From positions 1 to 64,000 of IMG/VR virus record IMGVR_UViG_3300025437_000010: a stretch of DNA of 64,000 nucleotides. One strand, 5' to 3'. Positions 19,621-47,974 of the stretch are shown in pieces (the first letter of the stretch is position 1; each line of letters opens with the position of its first letter). Source of the DNA: a virus. Position numbers and translations under genes: made by a program. Below the pieces are notes generated by a model that was given only the letters and a program-made list of their open reading frames with translations, had not been told where the DNA came from and ran no database searches.

Positions 19621-19631
19621 AGGATAACAAA

Positions 19632-21899
19632 TTGCAAACCTCTCCAGAAATTGAAAATATTATTGAACGTGCAATTGAAAGCGCAAAGACCAGACAGCAT
19701 CAATATTGCACCGTAGAACATTTGCTACTTGCGCTAATCACTCATCCTCCTTTCAAGAAGTGCTTGAACAGTTTCAACGTTGACACTGACCTCATGGTAG
19801 ATGAAGTTGAAACATACATCAATTCTCTTCATGCAATTGAAACAAAAGACCCCAACTTTAGTCCACGCAAGACTAATACTCTTGAGCGCGTAATGAACCG
19901 TTCGGTTACGCAGGTTCTATTCAATGGTCGTCGTCAAGTAACTACTCTTGATTTGTATCTTTCTATTGCATCTGAAAACAATTCCCATGCCCACTACTTC
20001 TTGCTCAAGTATGGTGTTACTAAGAATGAATTTTTCCGTCATTGGGAAAAAACATACAAGGGTGGCGCAGGAAACACGAAACTCACCGAAACACAAGCCG
20101 ACGAAATTCTTGAAGAATACACTACCAATCTTACTCAGCTTGCTCGTAATGAAAAGATTGAGCCGGTAATTGGTCGTGCTACTGAAATCAATGACATCAT
20201 CAATGTGCTTGCAAAGCGTTTCAAGTCAAACGTGCTGATGGTCGGTGATCCGGGCGTAGGTAAGACTGCAATCGCAGAAGGAATCGCTCAGGCAATCGTT
20301 GATAAAAATGTTCCAGATTTCTTGCTGGATCATGACCTGTATTCTTTGGAAATCGGTTCTCTACTTGCTGGTTCTCGCTATCGCGGTGATTTTGAAGAAA
20401 AGATCAAGAACATTCTTGACGCACTAAACGTCAAGAAGAAAGCGATTCTTTTCATTGACGAGGCTCACACAATGCAGGGTGCAGGAAATGCTGGCAACGG
20501 TGGACCAGACTTTGCAAATATGATTAAGCCTGCAATCACCAAGGGAACTCTCAAGGTTATTGCTTCTACGACTTGGGAAGAATTTTACGAATCCTTTGAA
20601 AAGGATCGTGCTTTGATGCGCCGATTCTATCGCGTTAGCATTGATGAACCTTCGCAGGATTCAACTATTCGCATTTTGAGCGGACTTGCAACTCGTCTAA
20701 ATGAATTTCACAATGTGGAAATCACTTCAGATGCAATTGAAGCCGCAGTTGATAGTTCTGCTCGTTATATCCATGATCGTAAGAACCCTGACAAGTCTAT
20801 TGATCTTATTGATGCTGCTTGCGCCAAGCAGAAGGTCCTTGGTAATGACGGTGCTGTTATTACTAAGCAAATGATCCATGAGCAAGTTGAAAAGTTTACT
20901 GGTGTTCCTGCTGATAAACTCAGTGGTGACAACTTTGATCGTATTCAGAATCTTGAATTGAATGTCAAGAACAAGCTCTATGGTCAGGACCAAACTGTCA
21001 ATGATGTTCTTGAGCGCGTGTATGTTTCTTTTGCTGGCATCGGCAATGAAAAGAAGCCAATTGCAAGTTTCTTGTTTTTGGGACCAACGGGTACCGGTAA
21101 GACTGAACTTGCAAAATTGCTTTCTTCCAATCTGGATATGCCACTTCATAAGTATGACATGTCCGAATATTCTGAGAAGCACAGTGTAAGCAGTTTGATT
21201 GGTCCTCCTCCGGGATATGTGGGTTTCAGTGACTCACAGGTTCAGGGTGGACGCCTGATTTCAGACTTGAGTAAGAATCCACATTCAATTCTGCTGTTTG
21301 ATGAAGTTGAAAAGGCGCATCCTGACATCTTTAATATTTTCTTGCAGATGCTTGATGAAGGTCGGATTACTGGATCAAACGGTAAGGAAGTATCATGTAA
21401 GAATACTATCATCATTCTTACTTCCAATCTGGGGTCGGCTGATAATGAGCGAAACAACATCGGTTTCGGTACTCTTGAGAAGTCCGGAGAAGACGACAAG
21501 GCGCTCAAGCAGTTCTTCAAGCCTGAATTCCGCAATCGTCTTGATATGGTTTGCAAGTTCAACAAACTTGATAATCTGTCAATCAAAAAGATCGTTGTAA
21601 AGTTCTTGGAAGATGTGAAGAAGCCTCTGTTGGAAAAGCACAACATTACTCTCAACCTAAGTGAGCCGGTCATTGACTATCTGGCTGCACAGGGTTATGA
21701 CAGTAAGATGGGTGCTCGCCCACTTAGTCGTAAAATTGACGAACTCATTCGCGTTCCGCTTTCAAAGAAGATTCTTTTTGAACGTATCAGCAATGCGAAT
21801 GTGATGGCGACTCTTGTAGATAATCAGATTGTTTTCTCCATGACTGAAAAGCAATCTGCCCATATTAATGAGGATGGAATAATTGAAGTTCAGTCTTGA
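19632..21899 (+). CDS. clpA: ClpA-like Clp ATPase
   Basis: Clp-N domain (TVEHLLLAL) and two AAA+ modules (GDPGVGKT, GPTGTGKT). Has a ClpP-docking IGF loop and no ClpB middle domain. Confidence 0.9.
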   Translation: MQTSPEIENIIERAIESAKTRQHQYCTVEHLLLALITHPPFKKCLNSFNVDTDLMVDEVETYINSLHAIETKDPNFSPRKTNTLERVMNRSVTQVLFNGRRQVTTLDLYLSIASENNSHAHYFLLKYGVTKNEFFRHWEKTYKGGAGNTKLTETQADEILEEYTTNLTQLARNEKIEPVIGRATEINDIINVLAKRFKSNVLMVGDPGVGKTAIAEGIAQAIVDKNVPDFLLDHDLYSLEIGSLLAGSRYRGDFEEKIKNILDALNVKKKAILFIDEAHTMQGAGNAGNGGPDFANMIKPAITKGTLKVIASTTWEEFYESFEKDRALMRRFYRVSIDEPSQDSTIRILSGLATRLNEFHNVEITSDAIEAAVDSSARYIHDRKNPDKSIDLIDAACAKQKVLGNDGAVITKQMIHEQVEKFTGVPADKLSGDNFDRIQNLELNVKNKLYGQDQTVNDVLERVYVSFAGIGNEKKPIASFLFLGPTGTGKTELAKLLSSNLDMPLHKYDMSEYSEKHSVSSLIGPPPGYVGFSDSQVQGGRLISDLSKNPHSILLFDEVEKAHPDIFNIFLQMLDEGRITGSNGKEVSCKNTIIILTSNLGSADNERNNIGFGTLEKSGEDDKALKQFFKPEFRNRLDMVCKFNKLDNLSIKKIVVKFLEDVKKPLLEKHNITLNLSEPVIDYLAAQGYDSKMGARPLSRKIDELIRVPLSKKILFERISNANVMATLVDNQIVFSMTEKQSAHINEDGIIEVQS

Positions 21900-25177: not shown

Positions 25178-25206
25178 GAGACCTCAGAAATGGGGTCTCT
25201 TTTTTT
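25178..25206 (+). terminator. Intrinsic terminator
   Basis: GAGACCTCA-GAAA-TGGGGTCTC followed by a T run. Confidence 0.85.
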
Positions 25207-25213
25207 GTATGGG

Positions 25214-25220
25214 ATAAATA
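25214..25220 (+). promoter_or_regulatory. Late promoter opening the putative head-cargo cluster
   Basis: ATAAATA immediately after the terminator. Confidence 0.65.
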
Positions 25221-25243
25221 CTCTATAATTAAGGGTCTTAATA

Positions 25244-26422
25244 ATGAAAATCAAAGATATTTGTGAATCAACATGCGCAGGTGGAATTGCTCCAGTAGCG
25301 ATGCCAATGACTACACAAAAACGCACAAAAGAATCGGTAGACGTTAATGGCTTACAGCCTGCCGAAAAGGTGATGAAGGGCAAAGCTAAGAAAAAAGGTC
25401 CTTATATGAACTCAATTAGTGAATCAAAAAAGGTTTCTGAGGCACACCTTGATGAGGAAGATGTAATCATGATTCCAGGCCAAGGTCGCTCAATGAAAAC
25501 TGGATTTGTTGCACATGATCCTGATCGTGCAGAGCATGAAGGTGAAACTCTTAAGAATAGCCTACGCACAATTGTTCGTTTGTCTTCTGAATTGGAAAAG
25601 CGTTTATCTGATAAAGATCAATTCCCTGAATGGGTATCAGAAAAGGTCGGCGGAATCAAGGCGATGATGACAAGTGTGATGCAATATCTTGCAAGTCAAC
25701 AGGATGCCGGTAAACCTTTTGAAACGAAGAAGATTCCGAATGGCGGGACTATTGCTGGTGGTATTGCCGCAGAGAATAAGAACAATCTACGTAAACGTAA
25801 CGACAGTAAGAAAAATACACTCGGTCTTCAATGGGGTGACATTCCAACCGAAATCGCTAATATGGACAAAAAAATTAATTTTTATGAGTCATATGTAGTA
25901 AACGATGGAAAACTATTTGAAACTAACGAAACATCTAACTTAGATGCATTCGATAAACTAAATGACCTTGCGGAGGCTAACCCAACTGTTGGTAACAAAT
26001 ATTTAATCATCGGTCTTTACCTATTGAATGATCAATTGGAAATATCACAATATCCAGAAATGTGTGAATTGCTATCAAAAACTTCCAACTCATTTAAAGT
26101 TAAACTTGGAAATGATAATAGAGTAGTAGAATTCCCATCAAAAACAATGTCAAAAGTAATGCCAGTAGTAACACTTCTATTTAAAAATGTTGGCGACTAT
26201 GATAAAATGAGATCATATGTCAGTATTAAATTTGACGGTGACTCACTGCCAGCGTTCACTAATGATGTTGTAGAAGGCGCAAAAGTTGATCGCATGGCAA
26301 AGCATATTGCTAAGTCGGAACGCGAAGCAGGTAAATCTAAGGACAAGGCAGAAAATATTGCTTGGGCAACATTAAATAAGCGTGGAATGTTAAACAACAA
26401 AAACCACAAAAAAGGCAAATAA
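25244..26422 (+). CDS. Modular putative internal head protein (leader MKIKDICE; C-terminal ChaB-like helical module)
   Basis: Modules separated by ISE/VSE/LDE/VVE sites; ends AENIAWATLNK. Confidence 0.6.
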   Translation: MKIKDICESTCAGGIAPVAMPMTTQKRTKESVDVNGLQPAEKVMKGKAKKKGPYMNSISESKKVSEAHLDEEDVIMIPGQGRSMKTGFVAHDPDRAEHEGETLKNSLRTIVRLSSELEKRLSDKDQFPEWVSEKVGGIKAMMTSVMQYLASQQDAGKPFETKKIPNGGTIAGGIAAENKNNLRKRNDSKKNTLGLQWGDIPTEIANMDKKINFYESYVVNDGKLFETNETSNLDAFDKLNDLAEANPTVGNKYLIIGLYLLNDQLEISQYPEMCELLSKTSNSFKVKLGNDNRVVEFPSKTMSKVMPVVTLLFKNVGDYDKMRSYVSIKFDGDSLPAFTNDVVEGAKVDRMAKHIAKSEREAGKSKDKAENIAWATLNKRGMLNNKNHKKGK

Positions 26423-26425
26423 TCC

Positions 26426-27919
26426 ATGAGTTCTGTAATGAAGGGCATCATTGATGAAGAAGACATTGATGAAGTCAATCTTAATAGTTATAAGAAAAAA
26501 GAACGATTTGATTCTTATGTATTAGGAAAACGCCCACCAAAAGAAGCAAAATTAATAGGGGAAATAGGAAATAATTTTCCTGTCTATAGATATGCGGATG
26601 AATATGGTGAAAATGAATTCTTCGTTACCTCACCTAAATCAGGTAAAACTGTAATATTTCTTAGTACTGAAGTGCCATCCAGTGCCAAAAACGTGCATAA
26701 AATTAATATAGTAGTGGCAAGTGATAAATCTCCCGGCGTAGATAAGCTATATCGTTTTCTGGTATTAAAAAAAGATTTGGTGCTGGTAGGTGATGATCAA
26801 TCTGAGGGTGCCAGAAAAGTATGGAAAAAAGCCACCAGACATCCCGGAATTAATGTGCATGGATTTAATCCAAAAACAGGCAATGCATTCCATCTTCGTG
26901 CATCCGACGAAGAAGGCTATTCAAATGCCACAGAAAGAGATAAATGGCGCGCAGATAAAAAGAACGCTTATGGTTCTGGACTTGAACCGGACAAACTACT
27001 GAAATATGACTCAGAAATTGATAATTTAATAGATGTGGGGAATTCCCAAATTGTTATGCACAAGCGTGACAAGAACATGACCAAAGAAAGTATTGAATCA
27101 TTGTTGCGTCCTTTGTGTGAGCACAAAATACGTCGCAGAAGTTCAATTCTTAAGGGAATTGTCGGAGAAGATTCAGACATGCAGTTTGCCGCTGAAAAGA
27201 CGCCAGCAGTTAATCCTTATGGTGGAAAAAAAGATAGGCAATTTAGAGGTGCCATCAGCGAAATGCCAGATACTTCTGGTCCAGTAGGAACACAAGATGG
27301 TGGATGGCGTCAAGTTAAATTAAAGCCTGCTGGTCAACTTGATGAATCTGATGTTCCTAAATGGTTAGAACTTGATCATCTGGGTTCTATGGAAAATAAA
27401 TTACAGTATTACGAAGCATATGCTAAAAATAAAGGTAATGTTCTTGAATCAAACGAGGATGATTACATTGATTCATTCGTGAGTCTGGCTAATATGGGAG
27501 ATTCCCCGGACATTAACTCTGAATGCATCATGATATCATTTTTACTTCTAAACAATAAACTCAGTTTGATGCATCGTCCAGAATTAGTAAAGCTATTAAA
27601 AGTTGATTCAGGAAAATACACTGTAAAATTAATGGACCAAGACAATAGAGTTGTAGAATTTCCAATTAATAGCAATTCCGCAATAGCGCCTATCATAACA
27701 CTTCTGTGCTCATCTACTGATACGTATGATAAAATACGAACATACGTAGAATTACGTTTTGACCTATCGTTACCGGACTATATCAATGAGGACACTTCAT
27801 ATGGTGGTGGCGGTGGACAAGGTGGTTATGCTGGACAGTCCTATCGTAAGTTCAGACCAAAAATGGCCGGGACTCATATGAAAAAAGAAAGTGCGATTCT
27901 GAAAGGAATTCAGATGTGA
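26426..27919 (+). CDS. Modular putative internal head protein (GNAT-like domain plus a domain shared with 25244..26422)
   Basis: LYRFL...DDQSEGARKVW GNAT-like motif, a DNRVVEFP domain, and S(S/A)(V/I)(M/L)KGI three times. Confidence 0.6.
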   Translation: MSSVMKGIIDEEDIDEVNLNSYKKKERFDSYVLGKRPPKEAKLIGEIGNNFPVYRYADEYGENEFFVTSPKSGKTVIFLSTEVPSSAKNVHKINIVVASDKSPGVDKLYRFLVLKKDLVLVGDDQSEGARKVWKKATRHPGINVHGFNPKTGNAFHLRASDEEGYSNATERDKWRADKKNAYGSGLEPDKLLKYDSEIDNLIDVGNSQIVMHKRDKNMTKESIESLLRPLCEHKIRRRSSILKGIVGEDSDMQFAAEKTPAVNPYGGKKDRQFRGAISEMPDTSGPVGTQDGGWRQVKLKPAGQLDESDVPKWLELDHLGSMENKLQYYEAYAKNKGNVLESNEDDYIDSFVSLANMGDSPDINSECIMISFLLLNNKLSLMHRPELVKLLKVDSGKYTVKLMDQDNRVVEFPINSNSAIAPIITLLCSSTDTYDKIRTYVELRFDLSLPDYINEDTSYGGGGGQGGYAGQSYRKFRPKMAGTHMKKESAILKGIQM

Positions 27920-28437
27920 GAGCATTTGAGTTTCTGACAGAAGATCAGACAACCACTATTCAATATCATATTGGCAATGCCAATAGTATTAACAGAGACG
28001 TCATGACTCAACTGTCACGCCTGATATCAGAAGGCGCAGAAGTTGATATGGGAGTTGTAAATCGCAACCTCGCATCAGCACCGTCTATAGGTTATGCGAT
28101 GGATGGTAATCAGGCAGTCGGCGTTATCGTATTAAAAAATCCGGTGAGTTCATATCGCCAAAAATGCTTTGTCGCAGCAGGAGTTCCGGAATTAGAAAGC
28201 CGATATAATTTAGAAATCGGTTATGCGTTCGTCAAAGAAGAATATCGTGCAAGAGGCGTAGGAATTTATCTTTGTCGCAAAATGGTTCGTTCTATCAGTG
28301 CACCGATTTATGCAACTACTCGTGAGGCCAATACTACGATTAATAAATTATTGCAGTTTGGCGGATTTCATAAAGCAGGAAATTCTTGGAAAAGTGATCG
28401 CGGAAACTATAATCTTTTCTTGTGGATTAAAGGTTAA
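27916..28437 (+). CDS. GNAT acetyltransferase with leader MRAFEFLTE
   Basis: EIGYAFVKEEYRARGVG acetyl-CoA motif A; N.TINKLL..GGF. Confidence 0.8.
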   Translation: MRAFEFLTEDQTTTIQYHIGNANSINRDVMTQLSRLISEGAEVDMGVVNRNLASAPSIGYAMDGNQAVGVIVLKNPVSSYRQKCFVAAGVPELESRYNLEIGYAFVKEEYRARGVGIYLCRKMVRSISAPIYATTREANTTINKLLQFGGFHKAGNSWKSDRGNYNLFLWIKG

Positions 28438-28444
28438 ATAAAAA

Positions 28445-29980
28445 ATGAAAACCAATGACATTGAAACCATTAATTATTTCGCATATGCACACAACGCCAA
28501 TACTCATATCATGAAGAAACGCTGTCCTTCAGCAAAATTAATTGGCACTGGCGTTCTTAAAAATTTCAAGTTAGTTTTCCGCCATTATGCTGATATAGAA
28601 AATGAAGATAATACTGAATGCTATGGTGTTCTATGGAATATCAATATCAAAGAGTTAAAGACGCTTGATTATGACGAAGGCATTCACAAATCTTACAACA
28701 GAATTCCAGTATCCGTAGATACTGAAAATGGTCCAGTAAAAGCAATGGCATATATAATGGACCCCGCTAACAGTGTTAAAAAACTTACACCTGAATGGTA
28801 TATCAAAAGCGTTGAAGAGGGATATAAAGAACATGGTCTTCCCGTTGAAGCCGTAGAAAATGCTCCTAAGAATGAAGGCTTTGACCAACCACTAAGCGAA
28901 GCAGGAGGGGTGCCTACGTATTATTTCTCTTACGGAATGCTATGTGATCCTAATAATATGCATAATGCTAAATTAGTGGGCGTCGGTGAACTTCGCAATT
29001 TTGAGTTTAAATTGTATCGTTTTGCAAATGTTGAACCAAGCACGGGAAGCAAGGTGTATGGTTGCCTGTGGGAAGTTGATCGCAGAATGTTAAGTGAGTT
29101 GGATTACTTAGAGGGATATCCTCAGATGTATGACCGTCGCACATACCCTATATACTGTGATGGTCAAAAATATCCAGCAGAAGTCTATCTGATGACCCCA
29201 GATACTATTAATCGCCTGCAAGGCACTATCCCAGCCAACTCATATATTATGTCAATTAAGTATGGCTATTCGCATGCGGGTGTTCCTTTATACCAACTGT
29301 ATGATGCGCTTGATACATTAGACGATCACAAATATCATGGATACACTGATACTAAAAATGATTACTCCACGTGGAATAATAGTAGCTATCTAGACGTTAA
29401 AGATGACAACGAGGATAATGGTGATTGGGACCCTTCTTATAGAGGACACCGAAACATTCAATATGAAACTGTCAGCACGGGAATGGGAGGCGGATCAGCA
29501 GGTAATAGCGGCGGCGCAATGGTAGGTGGTCCAACTACCTATGAACAAGAACATGCTTTAACTAAACACAAAGGGCGTGGGCAGAGAAGAACATTAGCCA
29601 GCACTTATGAGAGTGTAGGTAACCAGACAATAACTCTATCAGACATTTATGATGGTGCTTATCCTGATCATGATGAAATGGTTTGGAACTTTGTTGGCGA
29701 TAACGACTTTGATATACCATTTGCTGTTCATACTATTCAACCATTTGTATTGGAACAATTGCTATCGAATCAACATGGTGTTGATGATTTAGAAGATTTG
29801 TTTGATAAAATGCAACCTGCTCAGGAAGCAATAGTATCTGATTATCAAAATAATCCTAATCTTTCTCAGGAAATAATAGTGCTTGCGGGTGACAGAATTA
29901 TTGACGGGCATCACAGGGCATTGGCAGCAGCATTATCTAATCGACCAATCAAGTATATTGATGTGACTGAGGAAGCATAA
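28445..29980 (+). CDS. Polyprotein: two gamma-glutamylcyclotransferase (GGCT/AIG2-like) domains plus a ParB/Srx domain
   Basis: YFAYAHN...GVLW...LDYDEG, then YFSYG...GCLW...LDYLEGYP, then IIDGHHR. Confidence 0.85.
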   Translation: MKTNDIETINYFAYAHNANTHIMKKRCPSAKLIGTGVLKNFKLVFRHYADIENEDNTECYGVLWNINIKELKTLDYDEGIHKSYNRIPVSVDTENGPVKAMAYIMDPANSVKKLTPEWYIKSVEEGYKEHGLPVEAVENAPKNEGFDQPLSEAGGVPTYYFSYGMLCDPNNMHNAKLVGVGELRNFEFKLYRFANVEPSTGSKVYGCLWEVDRRMLSELDYLEGYPQMYDRRTYPIYCDGQKYPAEVYLMTPDTINRLQGTIPANSYIMSIKYGYSHAGVPLYQLYDALDTLDDHKYHGYTDTKNDYSTWNNSSYLDVKDDNEDNGDWDPSYRGHRNIQYETVSTGMGGGSAGNSGGAMVGGPTTYEQEHALTKHKGRGQRRTLASTYESVGNQTITLSDIYDGAYPDHDEMVWNFVGDNDFDIPFAVHTIQPFVLEQLLSNQHGVDDLEDLFDKMQPAQEAIVSDYQNNPNLSQEIIVLAGDRIIDGHHRALAAALSNRPIKYIDVTEEA

Positions 29981-30004
29981 ATACTCCAATAAGGACTATT
30001 AATA

Positions 30005-30445
30005 ATGCTGGCTGATAATTTAAAAACATTGCTCGGAAGCACTCACGTATTATATACTAAAATACACGGATTTCACTGGAACGTTCAAGGAAAGGATTTC
30101 CCTCAATATCACAAATTCTTGAATAAATTCTATGATGAAGTTTATGAAACGATTGATACAATTGCTGAATATATCAGAACATTAGATTCATTTGCTCCGG
30201 GAAGTCTCGCGAGATTTATGGAACTTACCATAATTGAAGAACAATTATTGGTTCCAAGAGCAGAACTAATGATGGCAGAATTGCTTGAAGATTCAGAAAA
30301 AATGATAGAGTTAGTAAAAGACATATTTGACGTTGCTACTGAAGCCAGAGAGCAGGCGATTGCAAATTTTATGGCAGACCTACAAGAACTTTATGCTAAA
30401 AAAGCATGGATGTTGCGTTCAATTCTTAAAACTTCACGAGCATAA
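30005..30445 (+). CDS. dps: Dps family ferritin-like protein
   Basis: HGFHWNVQG..F..YH, DTIAE.IR and K.AWML motifs. Confidence 0.9.
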   Translation: MLADNLKTLLGSTHVLYTKIHGFHWNVQGKDFPQYHKFLNKFYDEVYETIDTIAEYIRTLDSFAPGSLARFMELTIIEEQLLVPRAELMMAELLEDSEKMIELVKDIFDVATEAREQAIANFMADLQELYAKKAWMLRSILKTSRA

Positions 30446-30448
30446 TAT

Positions 30449-33046
30449 ATGAGAGCAAAACAATTTCTTGAACTGTATGAGGCACAACAGCAACTATTTG
30501 AAGTGGAAATGTCCCCTTCAAGTTTAAGAAAACTTGCCAGTAATATTCCGGGTGCTTTAGCCGGTCTTGAGTATGAAATGTTTGTTCCGGATGTTGATTT
30601 AGGAGGCGATGACGATGAGCCAGAAGAAGACATGGATATGGACGAATCCGCAATTGACATTGACGATATTGTTCGTTTCTTTGACGACAGCGAACATAAT
30701 ACTTCAAGAACAATCCGCGAACTGAGACGAGAATTAGAAGAAAAATATTCCGAGTATGTTGACCGTGAAATTGAAGATGCCTGGCAGGGTTCCGAAGGTA
30801 AACAGCATCTTTACGACTGGATTAAAAATAATGTTGATAATGATGATCTTGCTGAATATTTAGACAAGACACCCGAAGAAGATGAAGAGGGCGATAAAGA
30901 AGAATTTAGTCCAACCGAGGAAGATTATGAAGAGGCAGCAGAAAAATCTTGGCAAGACGAAGATTCTTATTGTGATGATGCTAAAGAAGATTTCATTAAT
31001 GACTATGATAGAAGCAATTTCAGTGAGAGAGATTTCTTAAGAGATATCGGAATTTATCACATGTCAGACGTAAACGGTAGTGTTTATGTTGACCTCACAT
31101 GGCCGCACTGGATTCGCGGGTCATCGGGTGAAAGGGGAATTACTGAAGTTGCCGAAGACATATCAGAATTTTTAGGAATTCCGGTATATACGGGAGAATA
31201 TCATTCTGGCGCAAGATCACCAAATGGCTATACATTAGAGACTGATGGTAGTTTACAAAAAGACGGTTATGCGGGTCTGGAATTGATAAGCCCGACCCCG
31301 CCGCCCCCAGTTGCCAAAACTCTTGAGGACATGGATAAAATTATTGAATGGGCACATGATAATGATTGCATAACTAATAAATCATGCGGGCTTCACATGA
31401 ATATTAGTATTCCAAATTATAACAGAGATAATTTGGATTATGTAAAACTTGCAATACTTACAGGTGATAAATATGTTCTTGATCAATTTGGAAGAGCAGC
31501 TAATACATATTGTAAATCCGCTATTGATATTATTAAAAGTAAAGCAGCTAATACAGAGCAAGCTGAACAACTTATTGATAAGTTACGTAATAATGTAGAA
31601 GAAATTGCCAGTAAAATATTACATGGCGGTCGCACTGACAAATACACCAGTATTAATGTTAAAGAAAATCGTATAGAATTTCGTTCACCCGGAAATGATT
31701 GGCTAAATGCCGGGACTGAAAAATTGACAAACACGTTACTGCGTTTTGTAGTGGCATTGGATGCGGCTTGCGATCCAAACAAATACAAAAAAGAATATTA
31801 TAGGGCACTGTATAAATTACTTAAGCCAAAAGACCCCAAATCTGACATGAGTTATTTTGCTCGTTATATGTCAGGTGAAATGACTAAAGAAGCATTAGCC
31901 GGTGATCTTTTACGCGCAAGAAAAACTCGTCTTGGTAAAAGCGGTATTGAGGAACTAAGTGAGTCTGAGGTCGATGATGGCGACTGGATTGTAACTGTAG
32001 GTGGTCGCGACAATAATACTAATACTATATATCTCAGATATACCAAACAAGTAAGTAATGGGACAGAAGCATTATCTGCCGCTCAAAAATTATATCCAAA
32101 AATATTTAATAAAAATAATGTTCAAAATACCACAGTTCAGAGATATAAAATTGATATTGATCCAGATTTAAAACTTTATAGAGTATATTATGGTTACTTG
32201 AACACTGACGTTGTTGCCAAGTCTGAACAGGAAGCAGAAAAGTTAGTTAAGATCATTGATGCTAGGCAAATTTCTCAATTTGGTGGTGACCCACGACTTA
32301 AGGCTGAAGAACTTGTGTCAGCTACTAAAAGAGCCATGAAAAATATGCTAATCATACAAAATAATAAGTTTGAAGAAGGTAAACATTGGCTTGAAAGTGA
32401 CAAAATTTATATTATTAGAGGCAATTTAGAATATGACATACCCATCAAATATATTGCCGCTAAAACAGAGCAAGAAGCCGAAGTGATCGCCAAACTAATG
32501 TATCCTCAATTTGATGATGATGCTAATAATTGGTATATTGTTCGTGGTTCGGGCAATATTCTCTATCCAGAAGAATCTGCAACATATAGAAAAGCACAAG
32601 AAGAATTAATTAAAAATAATCAAACCAATCGTCAGTCAACAGATGACACGCATGCCACAGATATGTCAGATATTAAAATGTATCGCGTTCATAATATAAT
32701 TGGATATGATTATGTAATGGCTAAATCGGAGGAAGAGGCGGAGGCGCTGGCCACTAAGATTAATTATGTAAAATTCCCCGCTGGTTCAGTGACTGCAGTT
32801 AGGGCAGAATTAGACCCAAGCAATACCGAGGAATTCGTTAGAAGACAAAATCTTAGATTAGCAAATGCACCTAAACCTTATCATATTATTGACACAAGAA
32901 CTAATCAGCCTGTGCCTGATTCTACATTCCCGGTGATTAATGATCATGATGCAGTTTTGAGATTGCGTGATTATGCAAGTTTTGGAAGACATGGTTTATC
33001 ATCAGCCCGAGCGCGCGAAGTGTTTGCGGTTCGTCCAGTGTCTTGA
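30449..33046 (+). CDS. Putative amidoligase (COOH-NH2 ligase type 2) with acidic insert and C-terminal repeats
   Basis: GLEYEM, ETDGSL, GLELIS, CGLHMNIS and IEFR motifs; leader MRAKQFLE. Confidence 0.8.
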   Translation: MRAKQFLELYEAQQQLFEVEMSPSSLRKLASNIPGALAGLEYEMFVPDVDLGGDDDEPEEDMDMDESAIDIDDIVRFFDDSEHNTSRTIRELRRELEEKYSEYVDREIEDAWQGSEGKQHLYDWIKNNVDNDDLAEYLDKTPEEDEEGDKEEFSPTEEDYEEAAEKSWQDEDSYCDDAKEDFINDYDRSNFSERDFLRDIGIYHMSDVNGSVYVDLTWPHWIRGSSGERGITEVAEDISEFLGIPVYTGEYHSGARSPNGYTLETDGSLQKDGYAGLELISPTPPPPVAKTLEDMDKIIEWAHDNDCITNKSCGLHMNISIPNYNRDNLDYVKLAILTGDKYVLDQFGRAANTYCKSAIDIIKSKAANTEQAEQLIDKLRNNVEEIASKILHGGRTDKYTSINVKENRIEFRSPGNDWLNAGTEKLTNTLLRFVVALDAACDPNKYKKEYYRALYKLLKPKDPKSDMSYFARYMSGEMTKEALAGDLLRARKTRLGKSGIEELSESEVDDGDWIVTVGGRDNNTNTIYLRYTKQVSNGTEALSAAQKLYPKIFNKNNVQNTTVQRYKIDIDPDLKLYRVYYGYLNTDVVAKSEQEAEKLVKIIDARQISQFGGDPRLKAEELVSATKRAMKNMLIIQNNKFEEGKHWLESDKIYIIRGNLEYDIPIKYIAAKTEQEAEVIAKLMYPQFDDDANNWYIVRGSGNILYPEESATYRKAQEELIKNNQTNRQSTDDTHATDMSDIKMYRVHNIIGYDYVMAKSEEEAEALATKINYVKFPAGSVTAVRAELDPSNTEEFVRRQNLRLANAPKPYHIIDTRTNQPVPDSTFPVINDHDAVLRLRDYASFGRHGLSSARAREVFAVRPVS

Positions 33047-33052
33047 TAAATA
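33046..33052 (+). promoter_or_regulatory. Late promoter
   Basis: ATAAATA overlapping the upstream stop codon. Confidence 0.6.
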
Positions 33053-33072
33053 CTAATTAATATGAGAGCAGT

Positions 33073-35718
33073 ATGAGAGCAAAACAATTTCTTGAACTTT
33101 ACGAAGCACAGCAGCAATTATTTGAAGTGGAAATGTCTCCTTCAAATTTAAGAAAACTTGCCAAAGGCATTGAAGGTGCCAAAGTTGGTATTGAATTTGA
33201 AATGGTTGTTCCAAACGTAAGTATAGAAAACAATGACGATGATGATGATGAAGTGAATTTTCCGGAACCAGAAATGAATAACCTATATGAACCTGCAAGA
33301 AGCATAGATGACATTGTTGAGTTCTTTGATAACCCTGGTTACAATGACTCACGCACAATCACCAGACTTAGAAACATATTAGAGACTAAATACCGAGAAT
33401 GGGCTAAGCAGTTCGTTGATAAACAATGGGACAAGAATGGAAAAGAATATCTTCTAAATTGGATTAGAAAAAATGTTAGCCCAAACAAAATTGCTGATTA
33501 TTTAGATTTACCCGAAGATTTGTTAGGTGATCGCATTCCTTCTAAGGAAGATTATGAAGAAGTAGCGTATGAAGAATGGATGCGCCCCGGCAATGCGGCT
33601 GGACATAATTATTATGATGCGGCATATGAATCATTTCGCGACGGTGATGTATTGCCTAATTATTATTATGATGAAGATGATGAAGACTCTGATCCGGACG
33701 AAAATAAAGAATATATATTTGGTTTTGACAGCGATGATGCCGATGATGCTGATGAAGAAACATTCTTAGAAAGTCTCGGAATCAATGATATGGAAGATGT
33801 GTATCATAACTCATTGAATAGCAATCATGTATTATCATGGCCAAGCTGGACTGATCCACAACCTGAATATAACAGTAGTAGTAGTTCTTCTTCTGGCGGA
33901 TCAGAATCAATACAAGATACCGCATTAGGGTTCATGAAGGCTCTCGGCTATGATTCAATTGCATATTCTACTTCATATCACGGAACATATTATAAATGGG
34001 ACGGTAACGATTGGGAATATTATGGTAATAAAAAACCAAATGATTGTTATGCGGTTGAGCCGGATACCAGCATAACAAAAAAGTCCGATGAGGCAGGTTT
34101 GGAGTTTGTGAGTCCACCACTTCCTCCAGAACAAATTATGGCAGATATTAAAAATATAAAAACATGGGCTAATCGCATTGGAGCCTATACTAATAAATCT
34201 ACTGCCATTCATACTAATGTTAGCGTTCCTAATTATGATATAGGAAAAGTTGACTATGTTAAACTTGCTCTATTATCTGGCGACAAATATGTCTTAGATC
34301 AGTTTGGTCGGACATTTAATGATTATACCAGTTCTTCACTAGATATTATCAAAAATAGATCATCTCGGTTATCTAATGAACAAGTAGAAAAGTTGTTGGA
34401 TAAACTAAAAAACAACGTGGAAGAAATAGCCAGCAATGAAATTCATGGACCATATTCAATGAAAAAAATGGTATCTGTTAATACCGGCGATCCGGCTGGT
34501 TACAATAAGAAAAGCGGTTATGTAGAGTTTCGTGCTCCGGGTGGCGATTGGCTTGGGACTAACTATGAAAAAATTGAGAATACGATTCTAAGATATATCG
34601 TCGCTCTTGATGCTGCCGGTAATCCTGAAAAATACAAACGTGAATATACTAAAGCGTTGTATAAAATACTAAAACCCAAGACTGCCACAGATAACATGAG
34701 TCTATTTGCTCAATATATGGCTGGTAATATTACCAAAGAAGCATTAGTAAGTAAACTTAAGGTTAAGAAAAAACCTTCACAAACAAACGATAAAATTGCT
34801 TCCACACAGTCAGGTGAAGATGAAACTATGTATAGATTCAGCACTCGTGATGGTTCAGTTGCGCCTGCTTATGCATCTGGTTCTGATCCAATGGAAGCAT
34901 TTGATAGATTAACTGCACGTAATGCTGTATGGAGAACTATGCCTATTAGTAATGTTCTTACTCATGTTGCTGAACCCAGTCGAAGACAAACTCCTCCTGA
35001 TGTTCAACAATTATCATCACCTGAACCTGATTCAATACCTGAATTAACCCGTGAATATCAACAGTGGTGTGAGCAACAAGGTCTTCCATATGTGGCAACA
35101 GAATATCAGGACTTTGATGAACTAACCGATGCGCAACGTGATTGGATAATGCGCTTTAATGTTCGCTGGTCGGCTGCAGAAGAAGCGCGTGATGCGCCCC
35201 AACAACAATCATCTTCCGAAAGAAGATTGTATTCAGTAAGAAATACAGACACAGGTGACGTAATGCAAGTTTTTGCAGATAGCCCCCTTAACGCAATGAT
35301 CGGTGCAAGAAGTGAAAATCCCGACTTCCGTAATGCTTCTCTTCATGCAGCAATAACTGCACCTGAACCAGATCAAACTCCCCGCCACACAGAAGGCGAA
35401 TCATTATATCGGGTGACCAATAATAACACTGGTGAGCAAATAACTATTGCCGCAGGTTCATTACAAACTGCATATGGCAGAGCGCAAAGAAACAATCCAT
35501 CATGGCAAGGCTCCATACTGACTGCCCGTCAGATTGGCTCTGATGAAATTAGTCCAGAATCTCCGACATATGATGTGCGTGATACAGCAGGAACAATACA
35601 TACATTACAAATACAAGCCAACAACGCCGATGAAGCCAGAAGAATAGCAAGATTACGTTATCCCGAACTTGACAGTCTTCCGGACACCAGACTTCTTGCA
35701 ACAAGAAGATCATCATAA
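33073..35718 (+). CDS. Putative amidoligase, tandem paralogue of 30449..33046
   Basis: GIEFEM, EPDTSI, GLEFVS, AIHTNVS and VEFR motifs; first ~30 aa nearly identical to the paralogue. Confidence 0.8.
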   Translation: MRAKQFLELYEAQQQLFEVEMSPSNLRKLAKGIEGAKVGIEFEMVVPNVSIENNDDDDDEVNFPEPEMNNLYEPARSIDDIVEFFDNPGYNDSRTITRLRNILETKYREWAKQFVDKQWDKNGKEYLLNWIRKNVSPNKIADYLDLPEDLLGDRIPSKEDYEEVAYEEWMRPGNAAGHNYYDAAYESFRDGDVLPNYYYDEDDEDSDPDENKEYIFGFDSDDADDADEETFLESLGINDMEDVYHNSLNSNHVLSWPSWTDPQPEYNSSSSSSSGGSESIQDTALGFMKALGYDSIAYSTSYHGTYYKWDGNDWEYYGNKKPNDCYAVEPDTSITKKSDEAGLEFVSPPLPPEQIMADIKNIKTWANRIGAYTNKSTAIHTNVSVPNYDIGKVDYVKLALLSGDKYVLDQFGRTFNDYTSSSLDIIKNRSSRLSNEQVEKLLDKLKNNVEEIASNEIHGPYSMKKMVSVNTGDPAGYNKKSGYVEFRAPGGDWLGTNYEKIENTILRYIVALDAAGNPEKYKREYTKALYKILKPKTATDNMSLFAQYMAGNITKEALVSKLKVKKKPSQTNDKIASTQSGEDETMYRFSTRDGSVAPAYASGSDPMEAFDRLTARNAVWRTMPISNVLTHVAEPSRRQTPPDVQQLSSPEPDSIPELTREYQQWCEQQGLPYVATEYQDFDELTDAQRDWIMRFNVRWSAAEEARDAPQQQSSSERRLYSVRNTDTGDVMQVFADSPLNAMIGARSENPDFRNASLHAAITAPEPDQTPRHTEGESLYRVTNNNTGEQITIAAGSLQTAYGRAQRNNPSWQGSILTARQIGSDEISPESPTYDVRDTAGTIHTLQIQANNADEARRIARLRYPELDSLPDTRLLATRRSS

Positions 35719-37919
35719 TGAGAGCAAATGAATTCATAACAGAGTCATCGGGAGTAAGACTCAAAGATTTAGCCACTGTGAAAACTAATTTTCCGGATGC
35801 CGATTTCTGGCTTCAGCGCAAAGGTAGCGAGAAGTCTGTAGGCACACCAACCAAAGAGTTTTCACCAGAAAATATCGGCATCAAGGTAACGGCTACTGAT
35901 GTTCTTGATGCAAGATATCTGTATTACATGATGCAGCATATTCACAACATTGGATATTGGAAACAGTTTGCGAGTGGTGCATTGAGACTAGTCAATCTTC
36001 CATTACAACATGTTGCCAATCTTCCTCTTGGTATGAATGAATCTTTAAATGAAGATGAAAATGTTCAAATAAAAACTGACCTAACTTATACCGATAGCTA
36101 TCAGGGACAGGCAGACGGATTCATACTTGCATCTGCTAACGGTAAATCACCATGGGCGGATGAAGGAAATGGCTATTGTCCTAATGCAGTTGGTGGATTG
36201 GATTTTAGTATCTACGAAGGCAAGGCATTAATCAAAATGGTGCAGGTTAAGCCCGAATATCAACGCATGGGAATCGGATTGGCTTTAGTAAAAAGACTTG
36301 AACAAGAAGTTGGTAAGGGAAACATTGACTGGGGGATGATGACCGACACCGGAAAAGTATTACATGATAAGTATCAGAATTTAGATGAGGCGTTGCCAAC
36401 TTGGGCTAAAAAAGGTGAGTTTATAATTGAGTCAATCGGACCTGATACGATCTTTAATCAGGTGAAAAAAATTCACCATACCTTCCGAGATATAGAAGAA
36501 GGTGATTTACCTGACCGTATCTATTGGTTTAGTGAGTACAAGAAAAGTGAACTCCCGCTATCACTGCTTTATTTACATGAATTTTTTGTTGATGAGCAAT
36601 TGGTAGATGATTATGTAAAACTAATCCAATCTTCACCCAATACAATGCCGCCTATTGTATATGATCCTATCGCTGGTTCAATCATTGACGGTAATCATAG
36701 AGCCAATGCTTATGCTAAATTAGGCTATGACACTATACCCGCATACGTTGGGTTAACAAAATCTGACAGTTACGGTGAGCGTGAAAACGAAATTGACGAA
36801 GCATTTCCTTCTTGGGCTAAAAAAGGTGCATTGGCAGCAGGCGGCGCGGCTGCATTGGCGGCTGGTGGTGTAGCACTAAGGCATGCACAAGACGATAAGC
36901 CTCAAGTCAGATTTGAACTCCCAAATGCTAAATCAGCAGAGAACGCACTCCGCCAAGATGCAAAAATTCTCGCTCATACTATGTGGGGAGAAGCAAGAGA
37001 CCAAGGCATTGATGGTATGATTGCCATCGGCAACGTCATAAATAATCGTGCCAAGGATACGAAACATGCAAGAATGTTTGGACAAGGCATCAAAAATATT
37101 GCAACCAAACACAAGCAATTTAGTTGCTGGAATCCCAATGATCCAAACTTTAAGTATGCTAAAGAAATGGAAAAAATTGATCACATCGTCAACACAAAGC
37201 GCGCGCCGAACAACGAAGACTTCAATAAATGGTTATCAGAGTTTAAAAATACCGGAGAGTTTCTAGATTATAAAAAATGGCGTAAGAGTTTAGAACTGGC
37301 AACTAAAATTCTGTCTGGTCAACTTCCTGATCCAACTCATGGAGCAGTGTATTATCACACTAAAAACGTTCATCCTGAATGGGCAAAGAGTATGAAAAAA
37401 ATAGGCTCACTTGGTCAGCACGTTTTTTATTCTTTACCTACGGCTATAAAAGAAACTCATGAATTAGACGAATACAAAGTGGACAATGAAAATGGTTTGG
37501 GTCAAGTTCCATACAATGCTAATGTGGATTATATGGGATTACGAGTTTTAATGAAACCGAGTATATTTTTGAAACTTGCTCACAAATTAGAAAATCCCAG
37601 AAGCGTTGATCATATCGTGAATCACATTAAACAAGGTGGCGCATTGGGTTCTCCATTTTTGTCCATAGACATTCCCCGTGAATGGGAAGAGGGCGATTTC
37701 AAACATGATGCCAGAGTAAGCGGACACGAAGGACGCAATCGCATGATGGCTATTCAGCAAGTTGAAGGCGATGATCCAGTTGAAGTTCACCTATTTCCGC
37801 GTGGAGGAATGAGAGCCAGACATCTTACGTCAGAAATTATCAAGCATTTACAAGATAGTATGTTTGGACAAGACGGAAACTATGTGTGTGGAAATTTATT
37901 CCAATTAATGCAAAAATAA
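35718..37919 (+). CDS. Five-domain polyprotein: HsdS TRD-like, GNAT, ParB/Srx, SleB-type cell-wall hydrolase, ParB-like
   Basis: Leader MRANEFITE; LDARYLYY; VKPEYQRMGIG; IIDGNHR; TMWGEAR...VINNR...QFSCWN...DPTHGAVYYH...HVFY; GHEGRNR. Confidence 0.8.
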   Translation: MRANEFITESSGVRLKDLATVKTNFPDADFWLQRKGSEKSVGTPTKEFSPENIGIKVTATDVLDARYLYYMMQHIHNIGYWKQFASGALRLVNLPLQHVANLPLGMNESLNEDENVQIKTDLTYTDSYQGQADGFILASANGKSPWADEGNGYCPNAVGGLDFSIYEGKALIKMVQVKPEYQRMGIGLALVKRLEQEVGKGNIDWGMMTDTGKVLHDKYQNLDEALPTWAKKGEFIIESIGPDTIFNQVKKIHHTFRDIEEGDLPDRIYWFSEYKKSELPLSLLYLHEFFVDEQLVDDYVKLIQSSPNTMPPIVYDPIAGSIIDGNHRANAYAKLGYDTIPAYVGLTKSDSYGERENEIDEAFPSWAKKGALAAGGAAALAAGGVALRHAQDDKPQVRFELPNAKSAENALRQDAKILAHTMWGEARDQGIDGMIAIGNVINNRAKDTKHARMFGQGIKNIATKHKQFSCWNPNDPNFKYAKEMEKIDHIVNTKRAPNNEDFNKWLSEFKNTGEFLDYKKWRKSLELATKILSGQLPDPTHGAVYYHTKNVHPEWAKSMKKIGSLGQHVFYSLPTAIKETHELDEYKVDNENGLGQVPYNANVDYMGLRVLMKPSIFLKLAHKLENPRSVDHIVNHIKQGGALGSPFLSIDIPREWEEGDFKHDARVSGHEGRNRMMAIQQVEGDDPVEVHLFPRGGMRARHLTSEIIKHLQDSMFGQDGNYVCGNLFQLMQK
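36400..36828 (+). repeat. 18-bp perfect direct repeat (cttgggctaaaaaaggtg) flanking the ParB/Srx domain
   Basis: Copies at 36400-36417 and 36811-36828, 411 bp (137 codons) apart. Confidence 0.9.
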
Positions 37920-43293: not shown

Positions 43294-45351
43294 ATGAAAA
43301 AATTAAAAAAAATACTAATAAATCCGTGGTTGGCTCTCCTGACATTTGCAATATTGCTTATAGTTAAACTATCAAATCCATATTTAATAGATGCAATGAA
43401 ACTTAAATTTTATGACTATCTAATGTTAAGTAAACCAATTCACAGTGATCAGATTGTAATTGCAAATATTGGTGAAAGGGCATTAGAGAAATACGGACAA
43501 TATCCATTTCCCAGAGATACATATGCAAAAATCGTCAACAATCTATATGATAATCATCATGCTGGTTTAGTTGGCAGCACCATAATGTTTCCAGAAAAGG
43601 ATAGGTTTGGCGGAGATGATGTGTTTGCTAAGTCGCTTACAGAGCATCCAGTGGTTCTAAGTCAAACTGTTTCTGCCGATTGCACACGCAACAATAGTTC
43701 AACCCGTAAAACTGGCGTTGCAATAGTAGGTGATGGCAAGCCAACAGAATTTTTACCAAATTATCCATGTGTTCTTGATAATATTTCAGTGTTGCAAGAG
43801 TCTGCTGTAGGTGTTGGTATAACATCAACGCTTCCTGAAACCGATGGTGTTGTTCGTCGCGTTCCTATGCTGGCAACATCAAAAGGAGATTATTATCCTT
43901 CGTTTGCATTAGAAATGCTACGTGCTGCTACAGGTGATCCAAGTTATCAGGCAAAAATAAATGAGACCGGCATTGAGGCAGTTCGTATTCCACAGTTTGG
44001 TAAAATTTCCACTGACGAATATGGTCGCGTGTTTGTTAATCCGAATTATGTATTCTCATCGTTTGAAGTAGGCGGGAATATTCCGCATCTCGGTGGTAAG
44101 ATCGTTCTACTCGGTGTGACTGCGAACGGTGTTGCAAACCCTGTAGCAACGCCGTCTGGTGCCCGAATGCCCCATCAGGTTCAGGCCAGCATTCTTCAGA
44201 CTCTGATAAATCAGGATTCTGTATCAATTCCGAATTGGGTTGAATTGGTTGATCTTCTGGCATTTTTTATTCTTTCAGTTGCTGTTATTGGAATGTCAAA
44301 CTTACGTTATTCTATTATATGGATCGCAATATTATTAACTGGATATATTTATGCTCCCTTCTATATGTATATACATAATAAAATATTATTTGATGTGTCA
44401 TTCAATGTACTGGCAGTTCTGATCATTTATATACATGTTTATTCAGTAAAGTTCATCAGTGAATTTCTACAGAAACAACAAATCAAGAAACAGTTCGGCA
44501 CATATCTAAGTCCTGATCTGGTTGCCCAATTGCAACGTCAGCCTGAATTGCTGCAATTGGGTGGCACTGAACAAGAACTTTCAATCATGTTTACGGATGT
44601 TCGTGGATTCACGACGATTTCAGAACATTATGGTAAGAACGTGCAGGGCTTGACAAAAATTATGAATCGGTATATGACTGCTATGACCAAAGCAATTTTA
44701 GAAAATAAAGGCACTTTGGACAAATACATCGGAGACGCTCAGATGGCGTTTTGGAATGCGCCGGTCAGCAATGAACAACATGCTCTGGATGCCGTGCGTA
44801 CTGCCTTTCAGATGTTAAAATCTCTTGAGGAATTTAATTATGAAGTCACCAAAGAAGGAGTCCCTGCTTTTGGAATGGGTCTGGGAATCAATACTGATAC
44901 CGTTGTTGTTGGTAATATGGGAAGTGATCAGCGTTTTGACTATACTTGCTTGGGAGACGGTGTTAATCTTGCGTCACGGTTGGAAGGGCAGTCAAAGCCT
45001 TATGGAGTCAGAATCATCATTGGTCCAAAGACCGCACAATATGTCAAAGACCGATACCAAATCGTAGAACTTGATCTTATTGCCGTTAAAGGTAAAACTG
45101 AGCCAGTAAGAATATATACGGTTTTGGAACAATTTAAAAAGATTGATGAAAATGCACATAATATGATTTTAAGTGCTTATAGGCTCGGTGCATGGAAAAG
45201 AGCACTGGTCATGATACAAACGCGTGGAAACATGTGGAATGGGCAACTGGATAATTATTACAAGATGCTTGAAGAGCGGATTTTAGAAATTCAAAAAAAT
45301 CCGCCCGCTCCCAAAGATTGGGACGGGGTATATCGCGCTACATCAAAATAA
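43294..45351 (+). CDS. CHASE2-domain class III adenylate/guanylate cyclase
   Basis: N-terminal TM; CHASE2 (GQYPFPR, DGVVRRVP, TPSG.MPH); three TMs; FTDVRGFT, DKYIGDA and DYTCLGDGVNLASRLEG. Confidence 0.92.
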   Translation: MKKLKKILINPWLALLTFAILLIVKLSNPYLIDAMKLKFYDYLMLSKPIHSDQIVIANIGERALEKYGQYPFPRDTYAKIVNNLYDNHHAGLVGSTIMFPEKDRFGGDDVFAKSLTEHPVVLSQTVSADCTRNNSSTRKTGVAIVGDGKPTEFLPNYPCVLDNISVLQESAVGVGITSTLPETDGVVRRVPMLATSKGDYYPSFALEMLRAATGDPSYQAKINETGIEAVRIPQFGKISTDEYGRVFVNPNYVFSSFEVGGNIPHLGGKIVLLGVTANGVANPVATPSGARMPHQVQASILQTLINQDSVSIPNWVELVDLLAFFILSVAVIGMSNLRYSIIWIAILLTGYIYAPFYMYIHNKILFDVSFNVLAVLIIYIHVYSVKFISEFLQKQQIKKQFGTYLSPDLVAQLQRQPELLQLGGTEQELSIMFTDVRGFTTISEHYGKNVQGLTKIMNRYMTAMTKAILENKGTLDKYIGDAQMAFWNAPVSNEQHALDAVRTAFQMLKSLEEFNYEVTKEGVPAFGMGLGINTDTVVVGNMGSDQRFDYTCLGDGVNLASRLEGQSKPYGVRIIIGPKTAQYVKDRYQIVELDLIAVKGKTEPVRIYTVLEQFKKIDENAHNMILSAYRLGAWKRALVMIQTRGNMWNGQLDNYYKMLEERILEIQKNPPAPKDWDGVYRATSK

Positions 45352-47971: not shown

Positions 47972-47974
47972 GTG

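Follow-up and report, generated by a model that had tools for sequence, protein, structure and literature searches.

The window analysed here comprises the first 64 kb (positions 1-64,000) of IMGVR_UViG_3300025437_000010, a single 110,198-bp IMG/VR contig with a CheckV completeness of ~30%. Positions 25244-37919 hold eight large, co-oriented and tightly packed open reading frames (ORFs), seven of which begin with a short N-terminal leader and encode candidate cargo proteins A-D and F-H; the remaining ORF, a ferritin-like gene, lacks the leader. We propose that the cluster probably encodes head-packaged ejection proteins, which would be directed into the prohead by their leaders and cut by the prohead protease at the junctions between their modules. 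A close and complete relative, reached through protein H, is IMGVR_UViG_3300032675_000001 (360,683 bp, terminal repeats, 100% complete), hereafter called the relative. The features of the cluster are as follows.

25244-26422, plus strand: protein A, 392 aa; leader in residues 1-8, ending I-C-E; no known family
Within 25244-26422, plus strand: insert of A, residues 178-344, absent from the orthologue in the relative; begins after A-A-E and ends V-V-E
26426-27919, plus strand: protein B, 497 aa; variant leader with I-D-E at residues 9-11; no known family
Within 26426-27919, plus strand: B residues 308-455, the module common with A, between L-D-E and I-N-E, then a Gly-rich linker
27916-28437, plus strand: protein C, 173 aa; starts at GTG; leader 9 aa long, ending L-T-E
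28445-29980, plus strand: protein D, 511 aa; 7-aa leader-like start; two GGCT/AIG2 domains separated by L-S-E at 152
30005-30445, plus strand: ferritin/Dps-like protein, 146 aa; without leader and not counted as cargo
30449-33046, plus strand: protein F, 865 aa; 18-aa leader with sites E11 and E18; amidoligase; four C-terminal alpha/beta repeats
33073-35718, plus strand: protein G, 881 aa; paralogue of F; Pro-rich linker with sites 634 and 657
35718-35744, plus strand: leader of protein H, 9 aa, ending F-I-T-E
35745-36053, plus strand: H unit 1, residues 10-112; ends L-N-E; no family found
36054-36389, plus strand: H unit 2, residues 113-224; GNAT acetyltransferase ending L-D-E
36384-36417, plus strand: first copy of a 34-nt direct repeat whose 18-nt core is identical in both copies; start of the ParB/sulfiredoxin (Srx) cassette
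36390-36800, plus strand: spacer of H containing a relic leader, followed by H unit 3 (residues 239-361); ParB/Srx-like; ends I-D-E
36795-36828, plus strand: direct repeat, copy 2; 411 nt downstream and in frame; end of the ParB/Srx cassette
36801-37472, plus strand: H unit 4, residues 362-585; Ala/Gly-rich hydrophobic stretch, then Hydrolase_2 (SleB/CwlJ-type); I-K-E and L-D-E at its end
37473-37916, plus strand: H unit 5, residues 586-733; C-terminal domain, well folded in the model; family not found

The cluster is conserved in identical order in the relative, with 52-93% amino-acid identity across shared parts and the ferritin/Dps-like gene in the same place. The major capsid protein of the relative shares 64-67% identity with its counterparts in Vibrio phage 2.275.O, Pseudomonas phage PA5oct, and GAP32/Rak2-like jumbo phages, which places it in the T4-related jumbo phage lineage of PA5oct and Rak2. 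By this comparison, the source of the window is an uncultured T4-like jumbo phage with a genome of ~360 kb, related to PA5oct and Rak2. A megablast search of the cluster against cultured phages returned no match. Since tblastn searches of the same phages with F and with a polyvalent homologue returned matches to single modules only, we conclude that no cultured phage carries this cluster.

BLAST comparison of the cluster proteins revealed no similarity except within two paralogous pairs, which share a module of ~150 aa (25244/26426) or ~500 aa (30449/33073). Over these ~500 aa F and G are 42% identical, and their first 20 residues are the same. Profile searches confirmed several enzyme domains predicted by an initial sequence-only reading of this DNA, namely two GGCT domains, Amidoligase_2, GNAT, and the Hydrolase_2 cell-wall hydrolase. 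The GGCT/AIG2 matches in D (phrog_2520) occupied two stretches and scored 94.5 and 73.3 bits, above the curated cut-off. Amidoligase_2 (PF12224) scored 32.5 bits in F against a cut-off of 22, and 19 bits, under the cut-off, in G. After its leader, C gave a weak GNAT match, also under the Pfam cut-off.

The ParB/Srx domains predicted in the same reading were weakly supported. For H unit 3, Foldseek placed Srx, Noc, and ParB at the top (probability ~1, E = 0.02-0.05) on a low-confidence model, a PDB sequence search gave only sulfiredoxins (E = 0.2), and Pfam gave no match. The C-terminal part of D contains a Gly-rich linker after the GGCT pair and then a unit with a DGHHR motif, whose ParB/Srx assignment was unconfirmed by Pfam or PDB sequence search. 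This linker (window 29450-29640, D residues ~335-400) is a recurrent module that also occurs in many H homologues and separates units in many of this clade's polyvalent proteins (a class defined by Iyer et al. 2017); it is composed of S-T-G...G-G-G-S-A-G, then G-G-P-T-T-Y-E-Q-E, and ends in a basic stretch and T-x-E. An HsdS-like domain, also part of that reading, was rejected, with no Pfam match at E up to 1 and no relevant PDB match for H residues 10-112. Relaxed Pfam, PDB sequence, and ESM Atlas searches gave no match for the module common to A and B, H units 1 and 5, or the F repeats. Pfam revealed no peptidase family in any of the eight cluster proteins (E up to 1 on unassigned segments).

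A leader common to mostly unrelated proteins, the starting point of the sequence-only reading, was present at the N-termini where it had been placed. We scanned the 110-kb contig with a loose pattern (M, K/R, 1-3 residues, D/E/N/Q, a hydrophobic residue, 0-2 residues, E) devised after the leaders were seen. It matched 10 of 171 ORFs, against 0.45 expected from composition. Six of the ten lie within 25244-37919 and none elsewhere in the window; the other four, at 91.6-98.4 kb and outside the window, head a 5'-nucleotidase, a dCMP-deaminase fusion, a 136-aa protein, and a GNAT fusion. An (I/L)-x-Glu leader end, the gp21 cleavage motif, was found at 25244, 26426, 27916, 30449, 33073, and 35718. 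Leaders ending in hydrophobic-x-Glu are retained in the relative, and the variant leader of B is conserved there as well. Because leader codons differ synonymously between genes, the constraint acts on the peptide and not on the RNA. A doubtful seventh leader (45366-45953, plus strand), included in the earlier reading, was rejected because the Glu at its presumed cut site is not conserved, the relative having Ala there.

The commonest form, M-R-A-x-E-F-I-T-E, was then sought across IMG/VR as a degenerate DNA pattern, with chance matches estimated at ~2. At least 120 contigs matched, and all 87 matches in 80 listed loci were ORF starts (median ORF 130 aa, longest 501 aa). The 78 complete candidate cargo proteins of at least 100 aa from these loci, compared with the leader removed, formed nine BLAST families; Pfam domains (GNAT, GH19, DUF6934, and DUF6321) were found in few of them. 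One family of ~125-aa proteins with the exact 9-aa leader had 50 members among the listed loci, some encoded as tandem pairs (L024, L025, L044, L054, L066, and L084), and is also present at 62259-63007 of the relative and at contig positions 96242-96652. It matched no Pfam family and is likely this clade's counterpart of the small T4 internal proteins.

Besides the four pattern matches, the contig holds a further gene with a leader-like start beyond the window. An Fe/Mn superoxide dismutase (contig 94307-94867; L023:6307-6867) begins with a leader-like sequence ending L-L-E and has ATAAATAC just upstream; as a packaged enzyme it would be unusual. The 5'-nucleotidase among the four (a 5'-deoxynucleotidase, NT5C; contig 91591-92133, L023:3591-4133), with its leader-like N-terminus, is preceded by a perfect sigma-70-type promoter, TTGACA-17-TATAAT. 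Its leader may be either a false positive of the pattern or the mark of an early protein reusing the peptide.

The second observation concerns the borders between modules, which the sequence-only reading had placed mostly on [ILV]xE. The sites it named exist, and comparison with relatives, which defines borders independently, places borders at the same points. When window proteins, and likewise a GNAT protein encoded at contig position 96649, were globally aligned with their orthologues, the following clean insertions appeared.

Protein A: 167 residues inserted; A-A-E at the border before, V-V-E at the border after
Protein H against the relative: 249 residues inserted; L-N-E before, I-D-E after
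Protein H against a second locus: 136 residues inserted; L-D-E before, I-D-E after
GNAT protein 96649: 146 residues inserted; V-N-E before; after, none exactly at the border, with the next site, L-D-E, 6 residues on

The module inserted in A is the one that it has in common with B. A first border test, on all ends of BLAST high-scoring segment pairs, was noisy and gave only ~2-fold enrichment; it was replaced by clean cassette indels. Cassette insertions with at least 55% identity on both flanks, after removal of duplicates, provided 87 unique borders, which were scored for [ILV]xE within 3 residues. The motif was present at 25 of 43 left borders (8.2 expected; p ~2e-8) and 30 of 44 right borders (8.5 expected; p ~3e-12), or 55 of all 87 against ~17 expected. 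Neither [ILV]xD nor [ILV]xK, used as controls at the same borders, was enriched.

Modules also appear to be interchangeable between the two kinds of position. The first 70 mature residues of leader-bearing proteins were searched against internal positions of other proteins, revealing eight module families that begin immediately behind either an N-terminal leader or an internal [ILV]xE. These include H unit 1, the ParB/Srx-like unit, a GNAT, a deaminase, and several unknown modules. Among 58 listed junction contexts, 29 were [ILV]xE and 10 were other xxE; ~8 of the remainder repeated, with an offset of one, junctions that had been counted before.

H, used as a database query, retrieved 77 proteins, many of which have only the ParB/Srx-like unit in common with it. 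The other domains of H-related proteins include ART-PolyVal (PF18760), DUF6934, nucleotidyltransferase, ParBc, GNAT, and deaminase, and homologues with the ParB/Srx-like unit carry PF18760, PF22028, PF18765, and PF02195. Judged by domain content, H-related proteins are polyvalent proteins as Iyer et al. define them. Content of this type was found within the cluster in D (two GGCT domains and the DGHHR unit), H (GNAT, ParB/Srx-like unit, and Hydrolase_2), and F (amidoligase and repeats).

In other phages, H unit 1 follows an internal I-T-E or T-N-E, and in two other proteins H unit 3 follows an N-terminal leader directly. The GNAT of unit 2 is part of the 249-aa cassette that is missing from the relative. 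The relic leader ends E-F-I-I-E at residue 238, preceding the ParB/Srx-like unit, and the 34-nt direct repeats, 411 nt apart, flank the cassette, an arrangement that records a fusion.

Homologues of protein F with a similar length number more than 1,220, and the best 120 were used for conservation figures. In these the N-terminus is an 11-aa leader of variable sequence, with [ILV]xE ending at position 11 in 97%. The residue-18 site is preserved just as often (97%), and a junction site near residues 505-510 in 77%. In an AlphaFold model of F (predicted local distance difference test score, pLDDT, 86), the leader forms a separate helix (residues 2-18) followed by a loop. The best fold matches to the large domain were glutamine synthetases, and these were weak. 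Sites 502 and 505 fall in the linker between the amidoligase and the four small alpha/beta repeats. In G, the last 118 aa form an extension that is not in the relative.

The gp21-like protease expected by the sequence-only reading was found in the relatives. PF03420 (Peptidase_S77, the gp21 family) was detected in 6 of 6 large leader-carrying relatives with 85-97 bits, including the complete 360-kb relative at 97 bits; the other five genomes measure 246-353 kb. The head module of the relative runs from the portal through a small protein, a 283-aa ORF, the protease (174783-175421), and a 368-aa ORF in scaffold position to the major capsid protein. With 24 [ILV]xE sites (6.5 per 100 aa; genome median, 1.3), the scaffold-position ORF has the highest density of 323 ORFs of at least 100 aa (464 called), with the protease itself in third place. 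Four hydrophobic-x-Glu motifs lie within the capsid protein's first 42 residues, at positions matching those of PA5oct. Together, the scaffold-position density and the capsid-protein motifs suggest that the enzyme keeps a T4-like specificity. Directly upstream of the portal gene, at 163946-171714, the relative also encodes two paralogues of ~1,290 aa, possibly further large virion proteins; the one that was scanned has a C-terminal endolysin-like domain.

Comparison with T4 itself was made at the level of the leader. In the T4 record, IPII and IPIII share their first 10 residues, ending E-F-I-A-E, and the commonest leader here ends E-F-I-T-E, with the T4 residues at P4, P3, and P1. The last four residues of the H leader accordingly match IPII/IPIII at three of four positions, T replacing A. 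The 10-residue T4 leader suffices for packaging foreign proteins and is removed by gp21; its residues 4 and 7 (P7 and P4) matter for targeting, and 8 and 10 (P3 and P1) for processing (PMC9026906). Cleavage by gp21 occurs after Glu (PMC9026906, PMC5694885).

The cultured relative PA5oct has 93 of 461 proteins classed as virion-associated, in a study that did not analyse processing (PMC7318152). Three proteins annotated as virion proteins from mass spectrometry have leader-like N-termini: a 73-aa protein directly after the portal gene (ending I-T-E), gp237 (ending I-T-E), and gp238 (ending L-V-E). A fourth leader-like ORF is not annotated as a virion protein. The exact M-[KR]-x-x-[DE]-F-type leader was absent from PA5oct at the DNA level, and the looser N-termini were identified by ORF scan.

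Upstream regions were compared with the T4 late-promoter consensus, and the following elements were found in and just ahead of the cluster.

25178-25199, plus strand: terminator-like hairpin and T run, closing the upstream unit ahead of the cluster
25214-25221, plus strand: T4-late-promoter-like ATAAATAC, 30 nt upstream of 25244
29977-29984, plus strand: ATAAATAC motif, 28 nt upstream of the ferritin-like gene at 30005, which thus has a motif of its own
33046-33053, plus strand: ATAAATAC motif, 27 nt upstream of the second amidoligase gene at 33073

The same motif lies ahead of 96242 and of a likely tail-fibre gene. In the 50 nt ahead of ORF starts, TAAATA occurred 4-9 times as often as in random 50-mers. 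On the genome of the relative, it is found ahead of the portal gene and the two head-module ORFs that follow, and also ahead of several large ORFs located downstream of that module. The motifs of the cluster are consistent with T4-type late promoters.

We envisage the following sequence of events. The cluster would be transcribed late, from the observed TAAATA motifs acting as T4-type promoters. The leader of 7-18 residues would dock each precursor onto the prohead scaffolding core, by analogy with T4 IPIII. A protease of the T4 gp21 family, as encoded by the complete relatives, would then cut after Glu, taking off the leader and severing exposed [ILV]xE junctions. The units so released may include two GGCTs, a glutamine-synthetase-like amidoligase that keeps or loses its repeat tail, GNATs, ParB/Srx-like units, a SleB-type hydrolase with a hydrophobic segment as a possible membrane anchor, and modules of no known family. 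They would stay beside the DNA inside the head, pass into the host when it is infected, and act ahead of phage gene expression. Cassettes may be exchanged by insertion of a module together with its own C-terminal xxE site after an existing site, or by fusion of a free-standing leader-bearing gene, whereby the end of its leader would become an internal site.

The leader, the protease of the relatives, the border enrichment, and the interchangeable modules all support the packaged, protease-processed polyprotein that had been proposed from the sequence. Every computational test with the power to overturn the core idea came out in its favour. A number of observations weigh against it. The leader at 28445 has D or E at P3 and no hydrophobic residue there, and its cleavability is unsupported. 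The leader-like 5'-nucleotidase gene at 91591 has an early-type promoter. PF03420 gave no match on this ~30%-complete fragment. The C-terminal 360-430 aa of F and G contain few or no sites (none in the C-terminal 360 aa of F), contrary to a uniform cleavability of the multidomain members, and no site closes the C-terminal extension of G or that of the deaminase protein. In some relatives, G or D replaces the junction Glu. [ILV]xE is found within folded domains as well: in F, site 98 is part of a long helix and is nonetheless conserved in 93% of the homologues compared, so that conservation of the tripeptide alone is no proof of cleavage. The H model is poor (pLDDT 50 overall, with residues ~610-730 at 70-90), which makes its linker assignment weak, and it was not used for quantitative comparison of linkers and sites. 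Finally, the PA5oct evidence consists of three proteins and is silent on processing.

Packaged proteins might instead lose only their leader and otherwise stay whole, with internal [ILV]xE left uncut as scars of past fusions (old leader ends) or as favourable linker chemistry. T4 Alt, which is trimmed at its two ends only, would be the model. We consider this unlikely, although it is the strongest of the alternatives. In its favour, H contains the relic E-F-I-I-E with its flanking direct repeats, and fusion and fission of leader-bearing genes clearly occur. A protein can be kept when G or D stands in for the junction Glu, and more than 1,200 F homologues retain one fixed full-length architecture. 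Against scars of this kind, at most internal junctions just the final three motif residues are kept, within sequence that is otherwise unrelated, a pattern unlike that of a decaying 9-aa leader. The enrichment is moreover specific for Glu at P1 and I/L/V at P3, being absent for D and K, and inserted cassettes carry their own C-terminal site.

A quite different function for the leader, as a tag unrelated to the capsid, appears improbable. It could be recognised by the phage's own Clp-type unfoldases and proteases or by a J-domain chaperone, or serve as a translation-start element or recombination handle. A J-domain protein (266 aa) and a 755-aa ClpA/B-like protein with two AAA domains, annotated as an "ATP-dependent protease" (phrog_4871), are encoded ~3 kb upstream of the cluster at 18820-21899. 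ClpX-like and ClpP-like ORFs were judged by eye, from N-terminal motifs only, at contig ~68970-70169 and 72871-73491. Gene 91591 looks early despite its leader-like start, and T4 IP loci shuffle at conserved 5' ends. The synonymous codon variation described above is at odds with a conserved RNA element. The match to the T4 capsid-targeting leader falls on residues relevant to processing, co-occurrence with a gp21-type protease is complete among the six relatives, hydrophobic-x-Glu is concentrated in the scaffold-position protein, and PA5oct virions contain proteins with such N-termini; all of these point to the capsid. Chaperones of the kind found upstream have been proposed as possible helpers in loading proteins into jumbo-phage heads (Iyer 2021). 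Chance in an AT-rich, Glu-rich proteome, in which [ILV]xE is a frequent tripeptide (~1.3 sites per 100 aa in the relative), can practically be dismissed as the source of the shared N-termini and junction motifs, given the excess of leader matches on the contig, their recurrence across IMG/VR at ORF starts, and the border enrichment with flat D and K controls.

Beyond the cluster, the window encodes tail-fibre-like proteins, an endolysin, a clamp loader, the ClpA/B-like ATPase, a split family-B DNA polymerase, and a cyclase. The polymerase (46280-50700) is divided between two ORFs by a 401-aa HNH/homing-endonuclease gene. The 685-aa protein at 43294-45351 has its best cultured matches, at 37-38% identity, in proteins annotated as adenylate/guanylate cyclases from Methylophilales phage Melnitz and Pelagibacter phage HTVC008M. 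Two minus-strand ORFs of ~215 aa (window 15059-15718 and contig 87990-88637), ~73 kb apart, have identical first 14 residues and the appearance of repeated mobile, homing-endonuclease-like genes.

If the proposal is correct, the leader and junction motif form a simple signature for predicting the pre-made, injected proteins of uncultured jumbo phages, a class otherwise invisible without virion proteomics. They would also supply the missing processing mechanism for a branch of polyvalent proteins without a peptidase of their own. Amidoligase, GGCT, deaminase, and superoxide dismutase modules would become candidate host-takeover or counter-defence enzymes at the very start of infection, and, as with the T4 capsid-targeting sequence, the leader could be a handle for loading large phage heads with foreign proteins. 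More broadly, we put at about even the prospect that a portable two-part capsid-loading code, consisting of a docking leader and hydrophobic-x-Glu junctions cut in trans by the prohead protease, is in use across a large clade of T4-like jumbo phages, most of them uncultured. Under such a code, modules would move freely between positions after the leader and after internal sites, and arsenals of amide-bond ligases, gamma-glutamyl cyclotransferases, acetyltransferases, deaminases, superoxide dismutase, and wall hydrolases could be re-assorted without an embedded peptidase.

Capsid-targeting sequences and hypervariable internal proteins are textbook knowledge for T4. As in T4 IPI, IPII, IPIII, and Alt, a short N-terminal leader ending (I/L)-x-Glu is common to otherwise unrelated proteins here, and the E-F-I-x-E core is identical to that of IPII and IPIII. 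The T4-type head module of the relatives with its Peptidase_S77 protease, the late-promoter-like motifs, and a hypervariable cargo set exchanged as cassettes extend the resemblance. In contrast to the small basic proteins of T4, the candidate cargo consists of large multi-enzyme fusions (173-881 aa) with internal sites. The leaders take other forms (9-aa M-R-A-x-E-F-I-T-E, 8-aa M-K-I-x-D, and an 18-aa form with two sites), and the phage is a ~360-kb jumbo phage of the PA5oct/Rak2 lineage.

In phiKZ, 201phi2-1, and SPN3US, a T4-related prohead protease likewise cuts many internal head proteins after Glu, often at multiple sites, and N-terminal propeptides are thought to target proteins into the prohead (PMC5694885). 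These phages belong to a separate lineage and differ in having A/S/G at P3 instead of I/L/V, propeptides mostly longer than 100 aa instead of 7-18 aa, and a cargo of virion RNA polymerase and inner-body proteins. A literature search found no paper on capsid-targeting leaders or protease-motif junctions in the lineage studied here.

Another close precedent is the polyvalent protein of phages and conjugative elements, in which many unrelated effector domains share one polypeptide encoded near late genes, predicted to be packaged and released as units. Iyer et al. (2017) already likened these proteins to viral polyproteins, with release by embedded MPTase or assemblin-like peptidases (PMC5512222); the virus-style polyprotein put forward in the sequence-only reading is therefore not new as an idea. 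PF07486 hydrolase, GNAT, and ParB-like domains are among those listed for the class (PMC5512222), and the H homologues carry its defining Pfam families, ART-PolyVal PF18760, DUF6934, ParBc, and GNAT. A search of the PMC5512222 text found no amidoligase, cyclotransferase (GGCT), capsid-targeting leader, or cleavage-motif mechanism, nor does the Iyer 2021 survey of jumbo phages add the leader and junction mechanism. Whereas embedded MPTase, assemblin-like, or LonC peptidases were not found in the cluster proteins, their junctions carry the motif of a protease acting in trans, together with a T4-type leader. The concept is thus a joining of the capsid-targeting sequences of T4 with the polyvalent proteins of Iyer et al.

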